32,000 nt of DNA from Propionibacterium ruminifibrarum (GCF_900289195.1 NZ_OMOH01000005.1:180001-212000); one strand, 5' to 3'; counted from the first letter of the stretch, positions 16,001 to 25,129 are shown. Numbers and translations: made by a program. The notes: generated from the sequence alone by a model not told the origin.

Positions 16001-16131
16001 CCAGGGTTGTTGTCAGCCCGCCACGGCGTACTGGGCGGTCGCTGTACTTTCCGCCAGGTGACCGGGAGCTGTCCGCGACGGGGCGGGCGGCGATACAGTG
16101 ACGTCAGTCGTCAACGCGAAAGGCGGGCCGC

Positions 16132-19100
16132 ATGTCGCGCATCAGGGTTGGCAGTGGCGGCATGTTCGGTTATTCCTTCGCCCAGGCGGTCGCCGCCTCG
16201 AAGAGGGGCGATGAGCTCGTCCTCGCCGAGGGCGTGTACACCCTCGGCGAGAGCATCGAGCTGCGGGATCTGCGTCTGACAGGAACAGGTGACCCGTCCC
16301 GGACGGTGATCGACTCCCGCGTCGACGTCACCGGCAGAGCAGTGCTCACCAATCTGACCATCAGGGCGGCTGCCTTCAACAATGCCCTCAAGGTGATGCC
16401 GGGCTGCCGCGTCGAGATGCGCGGGGTGATGCTGATCGGGGATCCTGCGGAGAAGTACCCGGCGCTCTATGTCGACGCCGGTGAGGTCATCTTGGCGGGG
16501 TGCCGCATGGTGCAGGGCCCGACCTGGGTGTCCTCGGTGTTCACCGCCGACTCGCGTCTCGTGGCGCAGTCCAGTGAGCTCGGCTGGTTGGAGTTGACCG
16601 GCACCCGGGCTGAGTTCCACGGGTGCGCTGTTGCCACGGTGCAGGTCCTCAAACGGTCGGCTGTGCGCTCCACCGGGTGGCTGATCTGCACCCCGGCGCC
16701 TGGCAAACGCCTGCTCGCCGTCGGGGGCGAGTCGGTGGTACAGATCGATGGCCTTGCGCTGCGAGGAGCCGCCGACCCCTTGGAGATTTCCTGCGAGGAG
16801 AGCCTGCTCGGCATCGGTGCCGTCGACCTCGACGAAGGCCAGCGTCCCTACATCCTGCGCAAGGGCGCAGGGCGTGTTCAGGTGCCCGACGGCGTGTTCG
16901 AGGTCGTCGACGAGGACGAGCAGAAGGAGGCCGCACCGCCCGCCCTGCTCATGGAACTGCACTGGTCTGTCTCCGACGCCCATCGCTTCACGGACGTCAT
17001 CCTTCCCAGGGCTGCGAGTGGGGCCACCATCACCATGGACGCCGGCGAGTACTTCCTCGATGGTCTCAAGGAGGAGACCGCGTGCTTCGACTGCACACTC
17101 GTCGGGGTCTCCCCGGAACGGACGGTCATCCACGGCACGCTGACCCCGAACGGCTCGGGCGAGTTGAGGCTGCGTGACCTCACCGTCCGGACGGCCACGG
17201 GTCGCAACTGCGTTGTCGCCAAGTCTGGCAGCGTCGCGCTGAGCAACGTCGTCCTCGAGCAGCTCGGCGAACCGATGAGCTATCCCGCGCTCTCGGCCAC
17301 GGACGTCGTCGTCACGATGGAGGACTCACGAGTGGCCGCTGCACCCGGGTCGACCATCGAGGGGATTGTCGAGCTGTGCGGGACTGCCCGGCTGGAGGCC
17401 AGCCGCAGTGATCTGGGCTGGTTCTACGCCAACGACCAGTCGGTGCTGGTCGCAGACGACTGTTCCGCGTACGGGCTCTTCCTCTCCGGTTCCCCCACGA
17501 TCCGGTCGACCGGTGTGTTCGCCATTCGCGGCAACACCTGCCAGACTCGGGGACTGGTGCTCAACCCCGGGACGCGTGCCAGTTTCGAGAAGATCCAGAT
17601 CGGCGGGGGAGCCCATGAGGGCTACGCCGAGGACGCGGTCCTCGAAGTGAGGGAGTTGCGCCACGGTGAGGGCGGCAGCTTCTCGCTCTGCGTCGCAGGT
17701 GAGAACACCCTCTCCGTGCCCGGCGAGCCCTGGTACGTCATCGAGACGGCCCGTGCCGGAGCCTCGACCGGGGAACAGCGCGAACCCGAAGCAGCCCCCG
17801 GGCCGGACGATCGTGCCGCCGACGAGGCGCCGAGGGCCGACGAGGAGGCACCCGAATCGGGTGTTGACGACCCGATGGCCGAGATCATGCTGCTCACCGG
17901 CCTGGAGGGGGTCAAGGAGCAGATCGCCTCATTCCTGAACGTCGTGAAGTTCAACGAGCTGCGCCGTCGTCAGGGGCTCAAGACCTCGGGCACGACGATG
18001 CACAGCCTGTTCCTCGGCAATCCCGGCACCGGGAAAACCACTGTCGCGAGGCTGCTGGGCAAGGCCCTGTACCAGGCCGGCGCCGTCGCGAAGGACGTCT
18101 TCGTCGAAGTGGGGCGCAGGGATCTCGTGAGCGAGAACATCGGCGGGTCGGCCATCCGTACGGGCAAGGTGCTCGAACGGGCCCGTGGCGGCGTGCTCTT
18201 CATCGACGAGGCCTACTCGCTGTACCAGAAGGAGCACAACCAGTTCGCCCAGGAGGCGGTGGACACGATCCTGTCCTTCATGGAGAACGAACGCGACGAG
18301 ATCGTCGTCATCTTCGCCGGATACGACGAACCGATGCAGGACTTCCTCCGCATGAACCCGGGTCTGGCCTCGCGCGTGCCGAACACCTTCACCTTCGAGG
18401 ACTACACGCCGGACGAGATCGCCACGATCGGTGTCGAGGCGCTCCACGGCGACGACTACCGCATCGCCGATGAGGACCTCTACCGGCGCATCGCGAGCCA
18501 GCAGTACGAACGCTCGATCTCCGGCGGCAACGGGCGGTGGGTGCGCAACTTCAACGAGGCCCTCATCATGAAGACCGCAGAGCGCGTGCTGAGGGAGGCC
18601 GAGCAGGGGCGGGTCGACGGGGCCGATCCCGGTCTCATCACCACCGACGACCTCTACGAGTTGGCCGGTGGCGACGAGGACCAGCGCCAGGACGCCGTCA
18701 ACACGCTGCTGTCGCAGCTCGACGACCTGGTGGGGCTCGCCCCGGTGAAGGCATGGGTGCACGAGCTCATCGACGAGGCCAGGGCCAACAAGCTGCTCGC
18801 CGAGCAGGGACTGGCGGTCGAACACCCGACCTACCACATGGTGTTCGCGGGGCGTCCGGGTACGGGCAAGACGACGGTCGCCTCAATCATCGCGCAGCTC
18901 TTCCACAATCTTGGCCTGCTGGAACGCCCGACGGTCCACGAGGTCGACCGCTCCGATCTCGTCGGAGCATATTTCGGTCACACCGAGGAGAAGACCACGC
19001 GTGCCGTGGACAACGCCATGGGTGGTGTGCTGTTCATCGACGAGGCGTACCAGTTGTACGGCGCCTCGGAGAACGACTTCGGTCGGATGGCCATCGAGAC

Positions 19101-19515
19101 GCTCATCACCCGGTTGGAGAACGACCGGGACAAGTTCGTGGTGATCTTCGCCGGTTACACCAAGGAGATGGAGCGCTTCCTCGACGCCAACGAGGGCCTG
19201 CGTTCCCGTGTTCCCCGGATGATCGAGTTCCCCGACTACAGCCCCGACGAGATCGGTGACATGGTCGTGGCGCGGCTGTCGCGGTCGTGGACGATCGACC
19301 GGGCGGCTGTCCACGACATCGCGGCCAGGTCATACGCGGGCCTGCCGGCCCAGGACCGCTCCAACGGCCGGTGGGCGCGCACCTTCGCAGACGCCGTCGT
19401 CACACGGCACAAGAGATGGATCGTGAAGAACCAGCCGACGGGCGAGGCGGTGCTGGCCATCGACACCGAGATGGTGAGATCACTCGCCCAGGAGATGGGA
19501 GCAGATCCGCGCTGA
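16132..19515 (+). CDS. large cytoplasmic fusion protein: duplicated beta-helix-like N-terminal modules + two CbbX/SpoVK/EccA-class AAA+ ATPase domains
   Basis: Single uninterrupted 1127-aa ORF with an ATG start. Residues 1-273 and 274-~545 are paralogous (details in findings). An acidic/Pro linker sits at ~17755-17875. AAA+ module 1 has Walker A GNPGTGKTT (18016-18042) and Walker B VLFIDEAY (18193-18216). Module 2 has GRPGTGKTT (18850-18876) and VLFIDEAY (19027-19050). Both have the FAGY and GLxSRVP motifs. No signal peptide or TM segment. Confidence 0.85.
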   Translation: MSRIRVGSGGMFGYSFAQAVAASKRGDELVLAEGVYTLGESIELRDLRLTGTGDPSRTVIDSRVDVTGRAVLTNLTIRAAAFNNALKVMPGCRVEMRGVMLIGDPAEKYPALYVDAGEVILAGCRMVQGPTWVSSVFTADSRLVAQSSELGWLELTGTRAEFHGCAVATVQVLKRSAVRSTGWLICTPAPGKRLLAVGGESVVQIDGLALRGAADPLEISCEESLLGIGAVDLDEGQRPYILRKGAGRVQVPDGVFEVVDEDEQKEAAPPALLMELHWSVSDAHRFTDVILPRAASGATITMDAGEYFLDGLKEETACFDCTLVGVSPERTVIHGTLTPNGSGELRLRDLTVRTATGRNCVVAKSGSVALSNVVLEQLGEPMSYPALSATDVVVTMEDSRVAAAPGSTIEGIVELCGTARLEASRSDLGWFYANDQSVLVADDCSAYGLFLSGSPTIRSTGVFAIRGNTCQTRGLVLNPGTRASFEKIQIGGGAHEGYAEDAVLEVRELRHGEGGSFSLCVAGENTLSVPGEPWYVIETARAGASTGEQREPEAAPGPDDRAADEAPRADEEAPESGVDDPMAEIMLLTGLEGVKEQIASFLNVVKFNELRRRQGLKTSGTTMHSLFLGNPGTGKTTVARLLGKALYQAGAVAKDVFVEVGRRDLVSENIGGSAIRTGKVLERARGGVLFIDEAYSLYQKEHNQFAQEAVDTILSFMENERDEIVVIFAGYDEPMQDFLRMNPGLASRVPNTFTFEDYTPDEIATIGVEALHGDDYRIADEDLYRRIASQQYERSISGGNGRWVRNFNEALIMKTAERVLREAEQGRVDGADPGLITTDDLYELAGGDEDQRQDAVNTLLSQLDDLVGLAPVKAWVHELIDEARANKLLAEQGLAVEHPTYHMVFAGRPGTGKTTVASIIAQLFHNLGLLERPTVHEVDRSDLVGAYFGHTEEKTTRAVDNAMGGVLFIDEAYQLYGASENDFGRMAIETLITRLENDRDKFVVIFAGYTKEMERFLDANEGLRSRVPRMIEFPDYSPDEIGDMVVARLSRSWTIDRAAVHDIAARSYAGLPAQDRSNGRWARTFADAVVTRHKRWIVKNQPTGEAVLAIDTEMVRSLAQEMGADPR

Positions 19516-19615
19516 GGGCGGTGCCGCCCGGTTGGGTCCCCCTCCGCGTTCGGCCGCAGGTGCCCGGCGGCGCCGGCTGGGGTGCGGGGGCCGGCGAACG
19601 GTAATCTGGGTGGAC

Positions 19616-20689
19616 GTGGCACTCACCATCGGAATCGTCGGCCTGCCCAACGCCGGAAAATCGACCCTGTTCAACGCGCTGACCCGCAACGACGTGCTCG
19701 CGGCGAACTACCCGTTCGCGACGATCGAACCCAACGTCGGCGTGGTCGGGGTGCCCGAGCCCCGCCTCGAGGTGCTGGGGAGGATGTTCAACTCCCAGCG
19801 CCTCGTGCCCGCCACGGTGAGCTTCGTCGACATCGCCGGCATCGTCAAGGGCGCCAGCCAGGGTGAGGGCATGGGCAACGCCTTCCTCGCCAACATCCGC
19901 GAGGCCGACGCCATCTGCCAGGTCACCCGCATGTTCAACGACGCCGACGTCTCGCACGTCGCGGGTTCGATCGACCCGGCATCCGATCTGGAGACGATCA
20001 CCACCGAGCTGGTGCTCGCCGACCTGCAGACCCTGGAGAAGGCGCTGCCCAAGGTCGAGAAGGAGGCGGCGATCAAGAAGGAGGCGCGCCCCCGGGCGGC
20101 CGCCTACCGCGAGGCCTACGAGACGCTCAGCAAGGGCGTCGGCGTCTTCCAGGCCGGCCTGGATCCCGAGCCGCTGCGCGACCTGTGGCTGCTCACCGCC
20201 AAACCGTACATCTACGTCTTCAACTGCGACCAGGACGAGCTGGCCGACGAGGAGCTGAAGGCCCGCACCCGCGAACTCGTTGCCCCGGCCGAGGCCATCT
20301 TCCTCGACGCCAAGTTCGAGGCCGAGCTGGTCGAGATGGAGCCGGACGAGGCCCGCGAGTTCCTCACCGAGATGGGCGTCGACGAGCCCGGCCTCGACAA
20401 GCTGGCCCGGGTGGGCTACGACACCCTCGGCCTGCAGAGCTTCCTCACCGCCGGCGAGAAGGAGGCCCGCGCCTGGACGATCCGCAAGGGCTGGACCGCC
20501 CCGCAGGCCGCCGGCGTCATCCACACCGATTTCGAGAAGGGCTTCATCAAGGCCGAGGTCGTCTCCTACGACGACCTGGTCGAGTACGGCTCGAAGAAGG
20601 AGTGCCAGGCGGCCGGGAAGGTGCGGCTCGAGGGCAAGGACTACGTCATGGCCGACGGGGACGTCGTCGAATTCCGGTTCAACGTGTGA
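19616..20689 (+). CDS. ychF: redox-regulated ATPase YchF
   Basis: GTG at 19616 gives (M)ALTIGIVGLPNAGKSTLFNALT, the canonical YchF N-terminus. Also DIAGIVKGAS and a C-terminal TGS-like end ...DGDVVEFRFNV. 357 aa. Confidence 0.95.
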   Translation: MALTIGIVGLPNAGKSTLFNALTRNDVLAANYPFATIEPNVGVVGVPEPRLEVLGRMFNSQRLVPATVSFVDIAGIVKGASQGEGMGNAFLANIREADAICQVTRMFNDADVSHVAGSIDPASDLETITTELVLADLQTLEKALPKVEKEAAIKKEARPRAAAYREAYETLSKGVGVFQAGLDPEPLRDLWLLTAKPYIYVFNCDQDELADEELKARTRELVAPAEAIFLDAKFEAELVEMEPDEAREFLTEMGVDEPGLDKLARVGYDTLGLQSFLTAGEKEARAWTIRKGWTAPQAAGVIHTDFEKGFIKAEVVSYDDLVEYGSKKECQAAGKVRLEGKDYVMADGDVVEFRFNV

Positions 20690-20691
20690 CG

Positions 20692-20745
20692 TCATTGACG
20701 CCTTCGGCATCACGCGGCACGAACTCGCCGTGTCCCCCCGGCCAT
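20692..20745 (+). pseudogene. relic fragment of a higA-like antitoxin gene (HTH region only)
   Basis: GTCATTGACGCCTTCGGCATCACGCGGCACGAACTCGCCGTGTC aligns with intact higA at 21817-21860 (TTCATCAATGCCTTCGGCATCACGCAACACAAGCTCGCAGTGTC), about 35 of 44 nt by eye. It encodes VIDAFGITRHELAV versus FINAFGITQHKLAV. There is no start codon, and homology ends after ~50 nt. Confidence 0.55.
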
Positions 20746-20777: not shown

Positions 20778-21200
20778 TCACGCTACCTCCCACGGGCTGA
20801 CGACCGCTATGCCCAGCGCCGCGAAGTCCTTGGTGTTGCGCGTGACCACGGTCAGGCCGTTGACCGCCGCGGTGGCTGCGATGAGTGCGTCGCGCTCTGG
20901 CCGCGGGTCCGGGACGTGCTGACGTGCGGCCCGGCGGGCCGCGGCGAGATCGATGGGGAGGATCCGGCCGGTGAAGGCGTCGAGGAGCTGCCCGTCCAAC
21001 CATGACTGGAGCCGCTGCGCCTGGGCGTGATCCCGCCTGTCCAGCCTGGCTATGCCCAGTTCCACCTCAAGGATTGTGATCACCGACAGGTACATGTCCG
21101 ACGGCCTTCGTGAAGCCACCCATGAGCGCACTCGGGGGTCGGCTCTGCGCACGGGCTTGCGGAGCTCGCTGACCACATTGGTGTCCAGGAGAAAGCTCAT
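20778..21200 (-). CDS. vapC: type II toxin VapC (PIN-domain ribonuclease, FitB-like)
   Basis: MSFLLDTNVVSELRKP... is a PIN N-terminal acidic motif. 140 aa. The ATG overlaps the upstream antitoxin stop (ATGA at 21197-21200). Confidence 0.9.
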   Translation of the reverse strand: MSFLLDTNVVSELRKPVRRADPRVRSWVASRRPSDMYLSVITILEVELGIARLDRRDHAQAQRLQSWLDGQLLDAFTGRILPIDLAAARRAARQHVPDPRPERDALIAATAAVNGLTVVTRNTKDFAALGIAVVSPWEVA

Positions 21201-21436
21201 AACTCTGGAACCCTCAGGCCGATGGATGCCGGCTCGAACTCGACATCGACGTCGTCATCCATGCTCAGCCTGTCGACCAGTGAGGCGCCCGTCTCCCCGA
21301 GCCTGCGGTAGTCGTCAATGGTCAGCAGGACGTACGCCGGTTCGCCGCGGTCGGTGATGATGACCGGCCCGTCATTGGCCGCCCGTTTGGCGGCACTGAC
21401 GTCGTGGTTGAAGTCGCGGGCGGTGATCGAGGTCAT
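21197..21436 (-). CDS. type II antitoxin, Phd/YefM (prevent-host-death) family, partner of VapC
   Basis: MTSITARDFNHDVSAAKRAANDGPVIITDRGEPAYVLLTIDDYRRL is a typical Phd/YefM N-terminal domain. 79 aa, translationally coupled to vapC. Confidence 0.88.
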   Translation of the reverse strand: MTSITARDFNHDVSAAKRAANDGPVIITDRGEPAYVLLTIDDYRRLGETGASLVDRLSMDDDVDVEFEPASIGLRVPEL

Positions 21437-21484
21437 GCCGACACCTCCTGTGTAGGTACATGCCTACGGTATCTTCGGTACATG
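21437..21484. promoter_or_regulatory. candidate shared operator/promoter region between divergent antitoxin gene and higB
   Basis: Only 23 nt separate the two start codons. Inverted repeat GTAGG-N6-CCTAC lies at 21452-21467. Direct repeat GGTACATG occurs at 21455-21462 and 21477-21484. The function is inferred, not shown. Confidence 0.3.
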
Positions 21485-21759
21485 TGGCGGACAAGGGGTG
21501 GGCGCGCTGCACCCGCCGGGCCATGGAGTGGGGCATAGGATGTTGCTGCGGCGCGTGGCAGCATCGATACCTGAGGCTGCTGAAGCTCGATGCCGCTGTG
21601 TCGCTCAACTCGCTTCGAGTCCAGCCCGGGAATCATTTGGAAGCATTGAAGGGTGACCGGAAGGGTCAGCACAGTATCCGGATCAATGACCAGTGGCGGA
21701 TCTGCTTCGTGTGGACCGATGCCGGCCCCGAGAACGTGATCATTGAGGACTACCACTGA
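21460..21759 (+). CDS. higB: type II toxin HigB (RelE/ParE superfamily, plasmid-maintenance killer type)
   Basis: The C-terminal two thirds, LDAAVSLNSLRVQPGNHLEALKGDRKGQHSIRINDQWRICFVWTDAGPENVIIEDYH, is the HigB signature. The N-terminal ~35 aa are atypical (Cys/Trp-rich), so the true start or intactness is uncertain. Confidence 0.78.
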   Translation: MPTVSSVHVADKGWARCTRRAMEWGIGCCCGAWQHRYLRLLKLDAAVSLNSLRVQPGNHLEALKGDRKGQHSIRINDQWRICFVWTDAGPENVIIEDYH

Positions 21760-21767
21760 GGTGCACC

Positions 21768-22067
21768 ATGGCAGAAAAGCTCTACGCGCCGATCCATCCG
21801 GGCGAGGTCCTGATGGAGGACTTCATCAATGCCTTCGGCATCACGCAACACAAGCTCGCAGTGTCGATCGGCGTGCCCCCGCGTCGGATCAATGAGATCG
21901 TGCACGGCAAGCGGGCGATCACTGCTGACACGGCGCTGCGCCTGGGGCGTTACTTCGACGTCGAGCCGCAGTTCTGGCTCAATCTGCAGTCACGGTACGA
22001 GCTGGAGCTGGCGGAAGATCGCGCTGCCGGTGAGTTCGACGCCATCAAGCCCATCCACGCCTCATGA
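21768..22067 (+). CDS. higA: type II antitoxin HigA (HTH, Xre-like)
   Basis: HPGEVLMEDFINAFGITQHKLAVSIGVPPRRINEIVHGKRAITADTALRLGRYFDVEPQFWLNLQ is the canonical HigA-family sequence. It starts 8 nt after the higB stop, with GAGG upstream. Confidence 0.92.
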   Translation: MAEKLYAPIHPGEVLMEDFINAFGITQHKLAVSIGVPPRRINEIVHGKRAITADTALRLGRYFDVEPQFWLNLQSRYELELAEDRAAGEFDAIKPIHAS

Positions 22068-22110: not shown

Positions 22111-22312
22111 GCCGGGGTGGGTGATTGCCACCTCGCAGCTGGCTGGAGTGTCGAGGTGGTCGTGTTCGGCATGACGGCGAGGCGTTGGCGCGACGGCCTC
22201 ATCGAGCACGGCTCGACGAAGGAGTGCCAGGCCGCCGGGAAGGTGCGGCTCCGAGGGCAAGGACTACGTGATGGCCGACGGGGACGTGGTGGAGTTCCGG
22301 TTCAGTGTGCGA
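22111..22312 (+). pseudogene. decayed duplicate of the ychF 3' end
   Basis: Core 22191-22309 aligns with ychF 20571-20689. By my hand count there are about 13 substitutions plus a 1-nt insertion (CTCCGAGGG vs CTCGAGGG) over ~120 nt. The insertion shifts the frame, and the stop TGA has become CGA. Weaker protein-level similarity (AGV...EVVVF vs AGVIHTDFEKGFIKAEVVSY) extends back to ~22111. Confidence 0.8.
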
Positions 22313-22327
22313 TGCCCGGGTGGACGC

Positions 22328-22419
22328 GGACAAGAAGTAGCGTATCGGCCCTCCAAAAAGTATCGTATTGAATCTCCAAAAGGTAGCGTAGAGATCAGCT
22401 AAAAAGTAGTCTTCATGCA
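22328..22419. repeat. four imperfect 23-bp AT-rich tandem repeats ending at the start codon of the DUF4143 ATPase gene
   Basis: Phased units begin at 22328, 22351, 22374 and 22397: GGACAAGAAGTAGCGTATCGGCC / CTCCAAAAAGTATCGTATTGAAT / CTCCAAAAGGTAGCGTAGAGATC / AGCTAAAAAGTAGTCTTCATGCA. Conserved core is AAAAAGTAGCGTA. This is the lowest-GC stretch in the window. Confidence 0.8.
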
Positions 22420-23672
22420 TGGAATACCTTGTCAGGACACTTGACCGCGAGTTGGATGCTCTTCTGGCCGATGCCCCTGCCGTCGCGATCGACGGACCCA
22501 AGGGTGTGGGGAAGACCGACACCGCGGCTCGCAGAGCGGGGCAGGCCTGGTTCCTCGATGACCCGGCCCAGCGAGAACTGCTTCGTGCCGACTTCGCACT
22601 TGACGCCATCGCCCCGCAGGGGGCGGTGCTGCTCGATGAGTGGCAGCAGCTGCCTCAGGTGTGGGATTCTGTGCGGCGCGCAGTGGACAGAGGGGCTGCT
22701 CCGGGAAGATTCCTTCTCACCGGGTCGGCCACGCCTGCTTCGGCATCGGGCACGCACAGCGGAGCGGGTCGCATCCTGTCGCTCCGGATGCGCCCGATGG
22801 GTCTGCACGAGCGAGGTGTGACCCGTCCAGCGGTCTCACTGGCAGCGCTTCTCACCGGTACCGCAGGAGAACTCGGGTCAACGACTGAGTTCGGCCTACG
22901 CGATTATGTCGGAGCGATCGTGTCAAGCGGCTTCCCCGGCACGCTCGGCATGTCGCCCCGAATGCGTCGTGGCTTCCTGGACTCCTACCTCTCCCGCGTC
23001 ATCGATCGTGATCTCCCGGATCAGGGCTACGAGGTTCGCCGCCCCGAGACGCTGAGACGCTGGCTCGCCGCCTACGCGGCGGCGTCATCGACGACGACCG
23101 CCTATTCACGACTCCTTGACGCCACAACCGGTGGCGACGGGGCGCAGCCGGCGAAGACAACGACCATCGCGTATCGGGATCACCTCAGCAGGCTGTGGCT
23201 GCTGGACCCCGTCCCCGCCTGGATGCCAGCGAGCAGTCCCTTCACCGCGTTGCGGCAGGCTCCCAAGCATCAGCTGGCCGATCCGGCGCTGGCGGCCCGC
23301 CTGCTGCGATTGACAGAGTCAACACTGCTTGCCCCTGAGGGCTCGGTGATGCTCGGCCACCTCTTCGAATCCCTGGTCACCCTTGGGATCCGCATCATGG
23401 CACAGGCCGCTGAGGCCACTGTCGGCCATCTGCGTACCAAGGCCGGTGAGCACGAAGTCGATCTCATCGTGGAGTCAGTGGACGGGGGAGTGCTCGGTAT
23501 CGAGGTCAAACTCGCGCCGGGGGTCCAGGACCCGGACGTGCGTCATCTCCTCTGGTTGCACGATCAGATTCCGGATCGGGTCGTGGACCTCGCCGTCATC
23601 ACCACGGGTCCAGCCGCGTACCGACGCCCCGACGGGGTCGCAGTGATCCCGCTCGCCCTGCTCGGTGCGTGA
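22419..23672 (+). CDS. AAA-type ATP-binding protein with DUF4143-like C-terminal domain
   Basis: Walker A AIDGPKGVGKTDTA, Walker B VLLDEWQ, and C-terminal HEVDLIVES...GIEVKL resembling a PD-(D/E)xK core. Many A/T-ending codons at the 5' end (gaa tac ctt gtc agg aca ctt). TAGTCT (22407-22412) sits 6 nt before the ATG, a possible leaderless arrangement. Confidence 0.85.
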   Translation: MEYLVRTLDRELDALLADAPAVAIDGPKGVGKTDTAARRAGQAWFLDDPAQRELLRADFALDAIAPQGAVLLDEWQQLPQVWDSVRRAVDRGAAPGRFLLTGSATPASASGTHSGAGRILSLRMRPMGLHERGVTRPAVSLAALLTGTAGELGSTTEFGLRDYVGAIVSSGFPGTLGMSPRMRRGFLDSYLSRVIDRDLPDQGYEVRRPETLRRWLAAYAAASSTTTAYSRLLDATTGGDGAQPAKTTTIAYRDHLSRLWLLDPVPAWMPASSPFTALRQAPKHQLADPALAARLLRLTESTLLAPEGSVMLGHLFESLVTLGIRIMAQAAEATVGHLRTKAGEHEVDLIVESVDGGVLGIEVKLAPGVQDPDVRHLLWLHDQIPDRVVDLAVITTGPAAYRRPDGVAVIPLALLGA

Positions 23673-24253
23673 CCGAGTTTCGTTCGACATCTCCACAGAC
23701 CGGCTTGACGAGGCTGTCGGGAGATTTCCCAATCTGCAAGTCATCGCTGAGGGCAGCGTCAAACGTCCTGATGTGCAACCGACCGTTGTTCCGCCGACGA
23801 TGGCCCAGTTGCTGCGCGTCCCCCCGAACAGCGCTCTGGGAGACATGTCATCGTCGCAACCGAGTGTCTGCCCACCCAAGGGCTCCGGCCCGGCTGGAGA
23901 CGGTGAGTGGGGACGGCTCCGTTGAGCAGTTCTTTCTCATGCCGAGATCCCCGACCTGTGACGTCCTCACCTCGGCCGTGGTTGAGTCCCGTAGTGGCTC
24001 ATGCCGTATTCGACCGGGCACATTGCTCGTGCTCCGCTCGTCCGGGCCCCTTCTGGACTTCCATCCGCCACACTGCTGCAACACGGTGCGATCGTCTTCT
24101 GCCCCGAGGCCATGACGACGATCCGCACTGGCCTCACAACTGTCGCGCTACCGCCCCAGCAGTCGGCTCGCCCGGGAAATGTCAGTGGCGGGCTGCAAGA
24201 TGGTTCATGGCCGGCGACACGGGCAGCGATCATGTCCCGAAGAAGGAGGGGGA

Positions 24254-25129
24254 GTGCACGACACCTGGAACCCCTGGCACGGCTGCCGCCGCGTCTCAGA
24301 GGGCTGTGACAACTGCTTCATGATGCACCGCGACGCCTCGTGGGGCGTCGACGGCGAGGTCATCCGCCGTGTCGCGCCCGCCGGTTTCACCTACCCGCTC
24401 AGCGTGGACCGCAACGGGGCCTACAAGGTGCGCGCCGGCGAGATGCTGCGCGTGTGCATGACCAGTGACTTCTTCCTGCGCCAGGCCGATCCCTGGCGCG
24501 AGGAGGCCTGGGACGTCATCCGGGCTCGCCCCGACGTGAAGTTCTTCCTGCTCACCAAGCGCCCGCACCGGGTCGCCCGCTGCCTGCCCGGCGACTGGGG
24601 CGACGGCTGGGACAACGTCATGCTCTCGGTCTCCGTCGAGAACCAGCGGCGCGCCGACCAGCGCATGCCCGTCCTGCTCGACCTGCCCTTCGCCCACAAG
24701 GGCGCCATGGCCGCGCCCCTCATCGGTCCCCTCGACGTGGCCCCGTACCTCGCCGACGGGCAGGTCGAGCAGATCCTCGTCGGCGGTGAGAACTACGGCG
24801 GCACCAGGCCGCTCGACATCGACTGGGTCCGCTCCCTGCGCGCCCAGTGCGAGGCCGCCGACGTGTCCATGACCTTCATCGAGACCGGCTCGGTCCTCGT
24901 CAAGGACGGCCGCACCTACCGGATGGGCTCCAAACGCCACCAGTCCGTGCAGGCCCACCGCTCCGGACTGTCCTACCAGGCCCGCGCCCGCCGGCCATGG
25001 CACCTGCGCGCACCGCTCGGCTGGGAGATCCCCGCCGGTGAACTACACGTTCCCGAGTTCTCCGGCGACTGCCTCACCTGCGGCTCCCGGCCCATCTGCA
25101 ATGGCCTCTACCAGGGGCGCTGCGCCTGA
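24254..25129 (+). CDS. DUF5131 family protein (phage Gp37/Gp68-like, three-Cys motif)
   Basis: GTG at 24254 preceded by AAGGAGGGGGA. The N-terminus (M)HDTWNPWHGCRRVSEGCDNCFMM matches the family signature WNPxxGCxxxSxGCxxC. An extra C-terminal Cys cluster is CLTCGSRPICNGLYQGRC. Confidence 0.85.
   Translation: MHDTWNPWHGCRRVSEGCDNCFMMHRDASWGVDGEVIRRVAPAGFTYPLSVDRNGAYKVRAGEMLRVCMTSDFFLRQADPWREEAWDVIRARPDVKFFLLTKRPHRVARCLPGDWGDGWDNVMLSVSVENQRRADQRMPVLLDLPFAHKGAMAAPLIGPLDVAPYLADGQVEQILVGGENYGGTRPLDIDWVRSLRAQCEAADVSMTFIETGSVLVKDGRTYRMGSKRHQSVQAHRSGLSYQARARRPWHLRAPLGWEIPAGELHVPEFSGDCLTCGSRPICNGLYQGRCA

Follow-up and report, generated by a model that had tools for sequence, protein, structure and literature searches.

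The SpoVK/CbbX/EccA clade of AAA+ ATPases contains dedicated chaperones with one client each, namely MurG, Rubisco and type VII secretion system (T7SS) substrates respectively. In the model developed for SpoVK, a dedicated chaperone uses a variable N-terminal domain to recruit a narrow client at a particular subcellular site (PMC11513918), and the signatures that mark the SpoVK-EccA-like clade are a GY sensor-1, an Asn-4-Arg spacing and a sensor-2 Arg (PMC11513918). The same 2024 paper mentions beta-helix N-terminal domains in passing for the EccA-like branch (PMC11513918), and beyond this mention our literature search found no functional study of proteins that join a beta-helix to AAA+ modules. 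Here we describe such a gene in a 32,000-nucleotide stretch of Propionibacterium ruminifibrarum DNA (GCF_900289195.1 NZ_OMOH01000005.1:180001-212000), referred to below as the window, in which positions 16132..19515 (+ strand) encode two predicted beta-helix modules followed by two AAA+ modules. We consider it probable that the product is an AAA+ protein remodeller, a hexamer with two stacked tiers in which an asymmetric motor is joined to beta-helix recognition platforms. An earlier note on this DNA had not recognised the gene as part of a described system, which holds for functional work, although an automated name and the passing mention cited above do exist, and the beta-helix/AAA architecture is already visible in the automated annotation ('Pectin lyase fold'). 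To our knowledge the twin beta-helix, the ring asymmetry, the modular series of related proteins, the insertion/empty-site/pseudogene series and the repeat-tailed partners reported below are undescribed.

Translation confirmed one uninterrupted open reading frame of 1127 aa with an ATG start, as the note had it, and the start codon is backed by a homolog alignment in which homologs open with MSRIRVG, MTRIRVG or MAKIHVG. The public records of the P. ruminifibrarum protein are SPF68590.1 ('Pectin lyase fold') and WP_119715741.1 ('AAA family ATPase'), and other assemblies contribute eight more copies of the 1127-aa protein. The sequence landmarks that the note had listed are all present, both those shared by the N-terminal halves (GDELVLAEGVY/GATITMDAGEY, PSRTVI/PERTVI, KYPALY/SYPALS, SSELGW/RSDLGW and RSTG twice) and the linker and AAA motifs (GNPGTGKTT/GRPGTGKTT, VLFIDEAY twice, FAGY twice and GLASRVP/GLRSRVP). 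No transmembrane (TM) helix or signal-peptide core was predicted in the protein, the maximum 19-residue Kyte-Doolittle value being 1.12, which agrees with the note on this point too. The features of the gene are as follows (SRH, second region of homology; AF2, AlphaFold2; pLDDT, predicted local distance difference test).

16132..19515, + strand, complete open reading frame: two beta-helix modules, linker, two AAA+ modules (SPF68590.1 / WP_119715741.1)
16132..16917, + strand, beta-helix module 1, residues 1-262, with N-terminal cap motif GDELVLAEGVY (AF2, Foldseek, hhalign)
16918..16947, + strand, short inter-module linker, residues 263-272, pLDDT <50 at 263-271 (AF2)
16948..17742, + strand, beta-helix module 2, residues 273-537, paralog of module 1, with invariant motif DAGEYFLD (AF2, hhalign, alignment)
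17767..17874, + strand, acidic Pro-rich linker, residues 546-581, presumably disordered (translation; poorly conserved and of variable length in the homolog alignment)
17881..18651, + strand, AAA+ module 1 (AAA1), residues 584-840 (NCBIfam/Pfam, CbbX alignment)
18016-18039 and 18193-18213, + strand, AAA1 Walker A GNPGTGKT and Walker B VLFIDEA
18124-18150, + strand, AAA1 pore loop LVSENIGGS, without an aromatic residue
18355-18375, + strand, AAA1 SRH NPGLASR, first Arg replaced by Ala
18700..19485, + strand, AAA+ module 2 (AAA2), residues 857-1118 (NCBIfam/Pfam, CbbX/EccA1 alignment)
18850-18873 and 19027-19047, + strand, AAA2 Walker A GRPGTGKT and Walker B VLFIDEA
18958-18984, + strand, AAA2 pore loop LVGAYFGHT, CbbX-type Tyr kept
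19189-19209, + strand, AAA2 SRH NEGLRSR, both Arg kept

The two AAA modules are 37% identical to each other over 252 aa (E 3e-54), and both match the NCBIfam models for SpoVK, EccA and CbbX as well as Pfam AAA and AAA_lid_6. Their best solved relatives are CbbX (157 bits for AAA1 and 178 bits for AAA2, at 38-39% identity) and EccA1 (152 and 167 bits), in keeping with the motif class proposed in the note. On profile scores the protein is nonetheless none of the curated equivalogs CbbX, EccA or SpoVK: the whole protein scores 393.9 bits for CbbX (TIGR02880; cut-off 459.25) and 415 bits for EccA (TIGR03922; cut-off 466.65), in both cases with the two modules summed, and the SpoVK cut-off (TIGR02881; 437.9 against 422.95) is exceeded only by summing two matched stretches. 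The clade signatures, in contrast to these scores for single members, are largely kept. The GY sensor-1 occurs in both modules (A729-G730-Y731 and A1007-G1008-Y1009) and is invariant in the family alignment, and the sensor-2 Arg is likewise found in both, NGRWVRNF of AAA1 and NGRWARTF of AAA2 aligning with NARSIRN of CbbX, with N800, G801, R802 and R805 and N1078, G1079, R1080 and R1083 invariant in the family. By these motifs the protein belongs to the SpoVK/CbbX/EccA clade.

The two modules differ in part of the motif set. AAA2 carries N1020-E-G-L-R1024-S-R1026, which aligns with NPGFRSR of CbbX, and its LVGAYFGHT matches the CbbX pore loop LVGQYIGHT with the Tyr kept. AAA1 keeps N742 but has Ala746 in place of the Arg, so that the Asn-4-Arg spacing is found in AAA2 only, and its LVSENIGGS has Asn at the position of the pore-loop Tyr. 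Family-wide, usually one ring has an aromatic pore loop and this is usually AAA2; in two Corynebacterium loci (L010 and L011) the pore loops are swapped, AAA1 being aromatic (SEYIGK, AEFIGK) and AAA2 having Val (GSVIGA). The note's view that both modules look catalytically competent therefore fits the Walker A and B motifs, the GY sensor-1 and the sensor-2 Arg of both, but not the loss from AAA1 of the pore-loop aromatic and the first SRH Arg, and because of that loss AAA1 may not translocate substrate.

At the level of the model, a stacked two-tier motor is supported. AlphaFold2 modelled residues 578-1127 with a pLDDT of 87.9 and a predicted TM-score of 0.70, and each modelled AAA module matched CbbX with a target-normalized TM-score (TMt) of 0.68-0.74. 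The modelled tandem aligned over about 580-600 columns with the D1-D2 protomers of double-ring unfoldases at query-normalized TM-scores (TMq) of 0.55-0.62, the values per protomer being 0.59-0.62 for Drg1/AFG2, 0.55-0.60 for Rix7, 0.59 for Pex1/6 and about 0.55 for substrate-engaged Cdc48/p97. This superposition of the model agrees with the double-ring remodeller that had been suggested.

That the N-terminal half is a duplication is weakly apparent in BLASTP (30% identity over 123 aa, E 3e-6), but hhalign, using profiles from four orthologs each, aligned the two halves end to end over 234 columns (probability 99.7%, E 3.2e-26), and because of this we take the duplication to be real, with the paralogous halves lying where the note had placed them (residues 1-273 and 274-~545). 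Pfam gave nothing significant for the N-terminal part of the window protein, so modelling was needed to establish the fold. In a Levilactobacillus (Lactobacillaceae) protein the homologous N-module did pass PF12708 (28.2 against 27) and just missed PF13229 (24.6 against 25.9). The AlphaFold2 model of residues 1-537 (pLDDT 85.7) contains two domains, 1-262 and 273-537, each consisting only of short strands with one capping helix, and every significant Foldseek match (19 in the PDB and 30 in BFVD, E <=1e-3) is a right-handed parallel beta-helix. The PDB matches comprise PL6 alginate lyases (E 8e-9), pectin methylesterases, GH55 glucanases, GH87 enzymes, phage tailspikes and autotransporters, and those in BFVD are 'right handed beta helix' proteins and tailspikes. 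The TM-scores are modest (TMt up to 0.39) since the query is two domains. On the models, then, both N-terminal modules are right-handed beta-helices, as had been foreseen from the repeat pattern. The Toastrack beta-helix of the PSP paper was also considered and is unrelated to the window protein.

From these features we propose a cytoplasmic AAA+ remodeller of the SpoVK/CbbX/EccA clade that probably assembles as a hexamer of two stacked ATPase tiers. AAA2, with its Tyr and both SRH arginines, would be the ring that grips and pulls polypeptide. AAA1 would bind nucleotide, and because it is without the pore-loop Tyr and the first SRH Arg a role in assembly or regulation is more likely for it. 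The beta-helix pair would sit atop the ring, most likely as rigid recognition platforms that select a client or an adaptor. By analogy with the Bacillota relatives described below, the client is probably a short linear motif in the disordered, possibly membrane-anchored, tail of a protein; for the actinobacterial twin-module gene there is no candidate client at the locus, and its nature we infer only from those relatives.

The relatives were collected by an exhaustive beta-helix profile search over representatives at 50% clustering, which returned 354 representatives at E <=1e-3 and 38 at E <=1e-30. (A word-indexed search with the N-terminal 560 aa, 16132-17811, gave no match at all, not even to the 99%-identical representative, and its negatives are unreliable for such a sequence.) Full-length twin-module genes occur in Gulosibacter, Yaniella, Arthrobacter citreus, Janibacter, Paramicrobacterium, Corynebacterium and Propionibacterium, and forms of some 840-930 aa, in which a single beta-helix is joined to two AAA+ modules, are found in many Lactobacillaceae, Staphylococcus, Streptococcus, Granulicatella, Anaerococcus and others. 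As judged from these matches the family is patchy across many Actinomycetota, and the Bacillota carry the one-beta-helix version. The modules are combined, beta-helix plus AAA+, as 2+1, 1+2, 2+2 and 2+3, and the note's statement that members of the clade normally have a single AAA+ module does not hold for these relatives, among which tandem or triple modules of the AAA class are common. In the protein P0018 residues ~870-1388 contain a third AAA+ module nearly identical to the second, which implies a very recent internal duplication, and in P0026 an E/R/A-rich, coiled-coil-like insert of about 80 aa (residues ~270-345) lies between the two beta-helix modules. The uninterrupted beta-helix/AAA+ architecture recurs across more than 30 clusters at 50% identity and in genomes independent of one another, among them the complete chromosomes of Paramicrobacterium sp. 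CJ85 and Staphylococcus lugdunensis.

Next to the ATPase gene, 16 Bacillota loci have a small gene, here called the FG partner, whose product of 190-242 aa has one to five xxFG[TAVP] motifs in a disordered tail of 71-136 aa and, after the tail, two or three TM helices. The FG partner gene lies 10-14 bp upstream of the ATPase gene wherever its start could be located, and in L019 it adjoins the ATPase gene on the opposite strand. These loci (L013-L024, L028, L029, L071 and L072; e.g. L014 9373-9963 and L023 8332-9060) belong to Lactobacillaceae and Staphylococcus, and the Staphylococcus lugdunensis copy has an extra N-terminal zinc ribbon. The loci of Granulicatella, Streptococcus suis and Anaerococcus have instead a translationally coupled gene downstream of the ATPase gene; the Granulicatella product is unrelated in sequence to the FG partner but has the same design, DYVAPPKR repeats being combined with TM helices. 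The positions of this second partner family are as follows.

L038 11622-12386 (Granulicatella), directly downstream of the ATPase gene
L030 11602-12444, directly downstream of the ATPase gene
L059 11615-12268, directly downstream of the ATPase gene
L067 11782-12456, directly downstream of the ATPase gene

Neither the FG nor the DYVAPPKR partners have a name or a Pfam domain, and a homology search with the FG partner gave close relatives only. The Streptococcus suis copy of the second family matches Pfam 'Mucin-like'. Because two unrelated partners share one design, these loci suggest, by analogy, a disordered tail with repeats at the membrane as either the target or the anchor of the beta-helix-AAA+ machine. 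A wider and distinctly tentative proposal is that the beta-helix-AAA+ proteins and their small partners form an uncharacterised membrane-proximal remodelling or extraction system of Gram-positive bacteria, in which the beta-helix would read motifs and AAA2 would pull the tail, the actinobacterial twin form possibly being a self-contained derivative with its client encoded elsewhere.

The history of the gene could be read from its surroundings. The flanking genes are ispH, rmuC, apeB (M18 aminopeptidase) and ychF, the position between apeB and ychF being the one that the note had given, and it had also proposed that this interval be compared in relatives. The order ispH-rmuC-apeB-ychF is preserved in eight metagenome loci, whose apeB is 58-83% identical, and in all eight apeB is followed by ychF about 70-115 bp on with no gene between, so that presence and absence are both seen. 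The junction sequences match these empty sites on both sides:

16001..16131, + strand, left junction, a 131-bp spacer from the apeB stop to the ATG, absent from the empty-site relatives
19516..19615, + strand, right junction, the spacer before the ychF GTG at 19616, matching the empty site from ~19595

(The mechanically called ychF reading frame begins at TTG 19532; a start at GTG 19616, VALTIGIVG, is favoured by alignments of homologs and by the sequence conserved at the empty sites.) Because the junctions match and eight relatives have an empty site, we regard the gene as a single-gene insertion of about 3.5 kb. No convincing terminal repeats were found around the insertion, and promoter and terminator scans around the gene were uninformative. 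In Propionibacterium australiense the genes on either side share 93-96% identity with their counterparts in the window and the gene is a decayed remnant truncated after residue 410; in strain NML98A072 (L070 10001-11023) residues 1-62 and 63-108 are left, separated by a frameshift, and then, past a deletion of about 200 bp, residues 170-410 at 77% identity, with apeB at 95.6%. Behind the remnant, S9-peptidase-like and FtsX-permease-like genes lie on the other strand. Other genera have unrelated housekeeping genes on the flanks, and the GC content of the gene is under that of its locus in nine of ten loci. In the window the beta-helix half has a third-position GC (GC3) of 0.85, where apeB and ychF both have 0.94, which lends weak support to the remark that the 5' part is richer in A/T-ending codons; values of 0.87-0.89 are, however, seen in other core genes of the window, and the total GC of the gene is lowest in the AAA half. 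Taken together, the insertion, the pseudogene, the unrelated flanks and the lower GC mark the gene as a dispensable accessory that spreads horizontally and was acquired singly between apeB and ychF, and the series points to a niche-specific rather than a housekeeping function.

Downstream, a direct repeat of about 122 bp that copies the ychF 3' end (20569-20689 and 22191-22312, ~90% identical) brackets a 1.6-kb insert with the following genes:

20778-21200, - strand, PIN/VapC-like gene
21197-21436, - strand, Phd/YefM antitoxin
21460-21759, + strand, HigB-like toxin
21768-22067, + strand, HigA-like helix-turn-helix antitoxin

A higA-like fragment lies just past the ychF stop (20688-20734 against 21819-21865, 81% identical). 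Beyond the insert, 22419-23672 (+) encodes a DUF4143/AAA_14 ATPase that is a full-length match to the PADLOC candidate PDC-S01 (E 5e-73) and has a GC3 of 0.74, well under that of core genes; adjoining this low-GC island, 24116-25129 (+) encodes a DUF5131 protein that weakly matches phage GP88 (PF17338). The note had placed our gene just upstream of an integration hot spot: there is indeed an insert at the ychF 3' end, but it is an event separate from the beta-helix-AAA insertion.

This neighbourhood bears on the first of the other explanations, an anti-phage or conflict system in which a fast-evolving beta-helix would sense an invader component (e.g. a tailspike-like or capsid protein) and the AAA+ rings would disassemble the target or trigger a response. 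The toxin-antitoxin island and the PDC-S01 candidate lie 1-3 kb downstream in the window, the family is patchy, crosses phyla and shows signs of horizontal transfer, the insertion is lineage-specific and has a decayed copy in the sister species, evolution of the recognition region is fast, and PADLOC gave partial, weak matches to IetA-type ATPases (E 1e-15). We think this explanation unlikely, however, as the island is a separate insertion with its own 122-bp duplication and PADLOC-DB v2 gave no match beyond the generic AAA core (IetA 1.4e-15 over ~100 residues; TRIP13). Moreover the protein has no nuclease, toxin or other effector domain, the genes that flank it in other genera are housekeeping genes rather than defence islands, and a tblastn search with the beta-helix part found no copies in plasmids or phages.

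The fold itself raises another explanation, that the beta-helix modules are carbohydrate-active catalysts (lyase, hydrolase, esterase or epimerase) working on a cytoplasmic glycan or envelope precursor and fed or regulated by the AAA+ rings. The closest structural matches are enzymes (the PL6 alginate lyases, themselves built of two beta-helix domains, and pectin methylesterases, GH55 and GH87), the Levilactobacillus homolog matches PF12708, and SpoVK and EccA1 have been linked to envelope-synthesis enzymes (PMC11513918). Across 32 diverse members, however, in which the beta-helix region is 20-30% identical, the conserved positions are structural (Gly, Ala, Pro, a ladder of Asn and GDxLxLxxGxY-type caps) and no conserved acidic/basic catalytic constellation was found; for these reasons binding or scaffolding is favoured over catalysis. 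A sequence-profile search of the PDB with the N-terminal part gave only sub-threshold matches (E at least 0.06), all of them beta-helix proteins, so that the sequence matches to enzymes are insignificant; the protein is cytoplasmic by prediction and no polysaccharide or cell-wall genes are linked to it in any locus. A catalytic role thus seems quite improbable.

We regard it as very improbable that the gene encodes an EccA-type T7SS chaperone in which the beta-helix replaces the TPR domain, even though the host is an actinobacterium, the AAA modules match EccA1 (152-167 bits) and PMC11513918 puts beta-helix N-domains in the 'EccA' branch. Besides the TIGR03922 score, which is under its cut-off with both modules summed, CbbX scores slightly above EccA1 for both modules, there is no TPR domain match and the N-terminus models as beta-helix. 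EccB-E, MycP and WXG100 genes are absent from the window and from the related loci examined, and a tblastn search for WXG100 near homologs, with an EsxA query sequence, gave no match; neither T7SS nor Rubisco genes occur in the 32-kb window, the rest of which is housekeeping. The close relatives that have no copy of the gene keep the same synteny. The neighbourhood comparison that had been proposed thus found nothing of T7SS or WXG100, and partner genes in Bacillota only. Finally, an assembly or annotation artefact fusing beta-helix and AAA genes, for which only the unusual length speaks and which the note had named as grounds for withdrawing its proposal, can be dismissed because the uninterrupted architecture recurs in independent genomes (more than 30 clusters, complete chromosomes and the eight further 1127-aa copies).

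For the two-tier remodeller with beta-helix recognition platforms there are also points that weigh against it. Without its pore-loop aromatic AAA1 need not be inactive; the missing catalytic constellation, in a fast-evolving beta-helix, is compatible with enzymatic activity; and the decay in the sister species and the patchy distribution would also fit a role in conflict. How the domains are placed relative to each other was read from a model of the monomer, for which the alignment comprised 6 sequences, and hexamer formation, ATPase activity and threading are predictions only. A scan near the actinobacterial twin-module genes found no partner with a repeat tail and TM helices, and no conserved neighbours of these genes were found.

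If the remodeller reading is right, the family would add to the clade a member with a cytoplasmic beta-helix recognition module and a two-tier motor. It is present in Staphylococcus lugdunensis, Streptococcus mitis, Streptococcus oralis, Streptococcus suis, lactobacilli and corynebacteria, its function being predicted only, and the repeat-tailed membrane partner in Bacillota offers a concrete binding hypothesis.

Compared with the described systems, the best match per AAA module in both sequence and structure is CbbX, the red-type Rubisco activase (PDB 3SYL, 3ZUH), which shares the Walker A and B motifs, the GY sensor-1 and the sensor-2 Arg and, with AAA2, the pore-loop Tyr and the RSR arginines. 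CbbX itself, however, is a single AAA+ module of about 300 aa with no beta-helix and is linked to Rubisco genes, whereas the window protein has 1127 aa, two modules and twin beta-helices and no Rubisco context. EccA1, the ESX-1 type VII secretion ATPase (PDB 9LUR), is of the same AAA+ clade and likewise has, in Actinomycetota, an N-terminal recognition domain before a CbbX-like motor, but the TPR N-domain, the one-module build and the ESX locus of EccA are not those of the window protein. SpoVK, a sporulation chaperone of the same higher-order clade that promotes MurG function (PMC11513918), is a single module with an N-domain of about 40 aa and is confined to sporulating Bacillota, whereas the host here is a Propionibacterium. 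The D1-D2 protomers of Cdc48/p97, Drg1/AFG2, Rix7 and Pex1/Pex6 superpose on the modelled AAA1-AAA2 tandem (TMq 0.55-0.62) but are only 16-20% identical to it and have unrelated N-domains, the CbbX-type modules having been duplicated independently. Double-ring unfoldases commonly divide the work between one ring that is degenerate and another that translocates. For the N-terminal half, the top fold match is the PL6 alginate lyase AlyGC (PDB 5GKD, 5GKQ; E 8e-9, probability 1.0), which also has two consecutive beta-helices and a cap motif of the type GDxIxLxxGxY as in the window protein; AlyGC and the pectin-lyase-fold enzymes are, however, secreted proteins with defined catalytic sites and are 9-13% identical to the window protein, which is itself fused to ATPase modules and predicted to be cytoplasmic.

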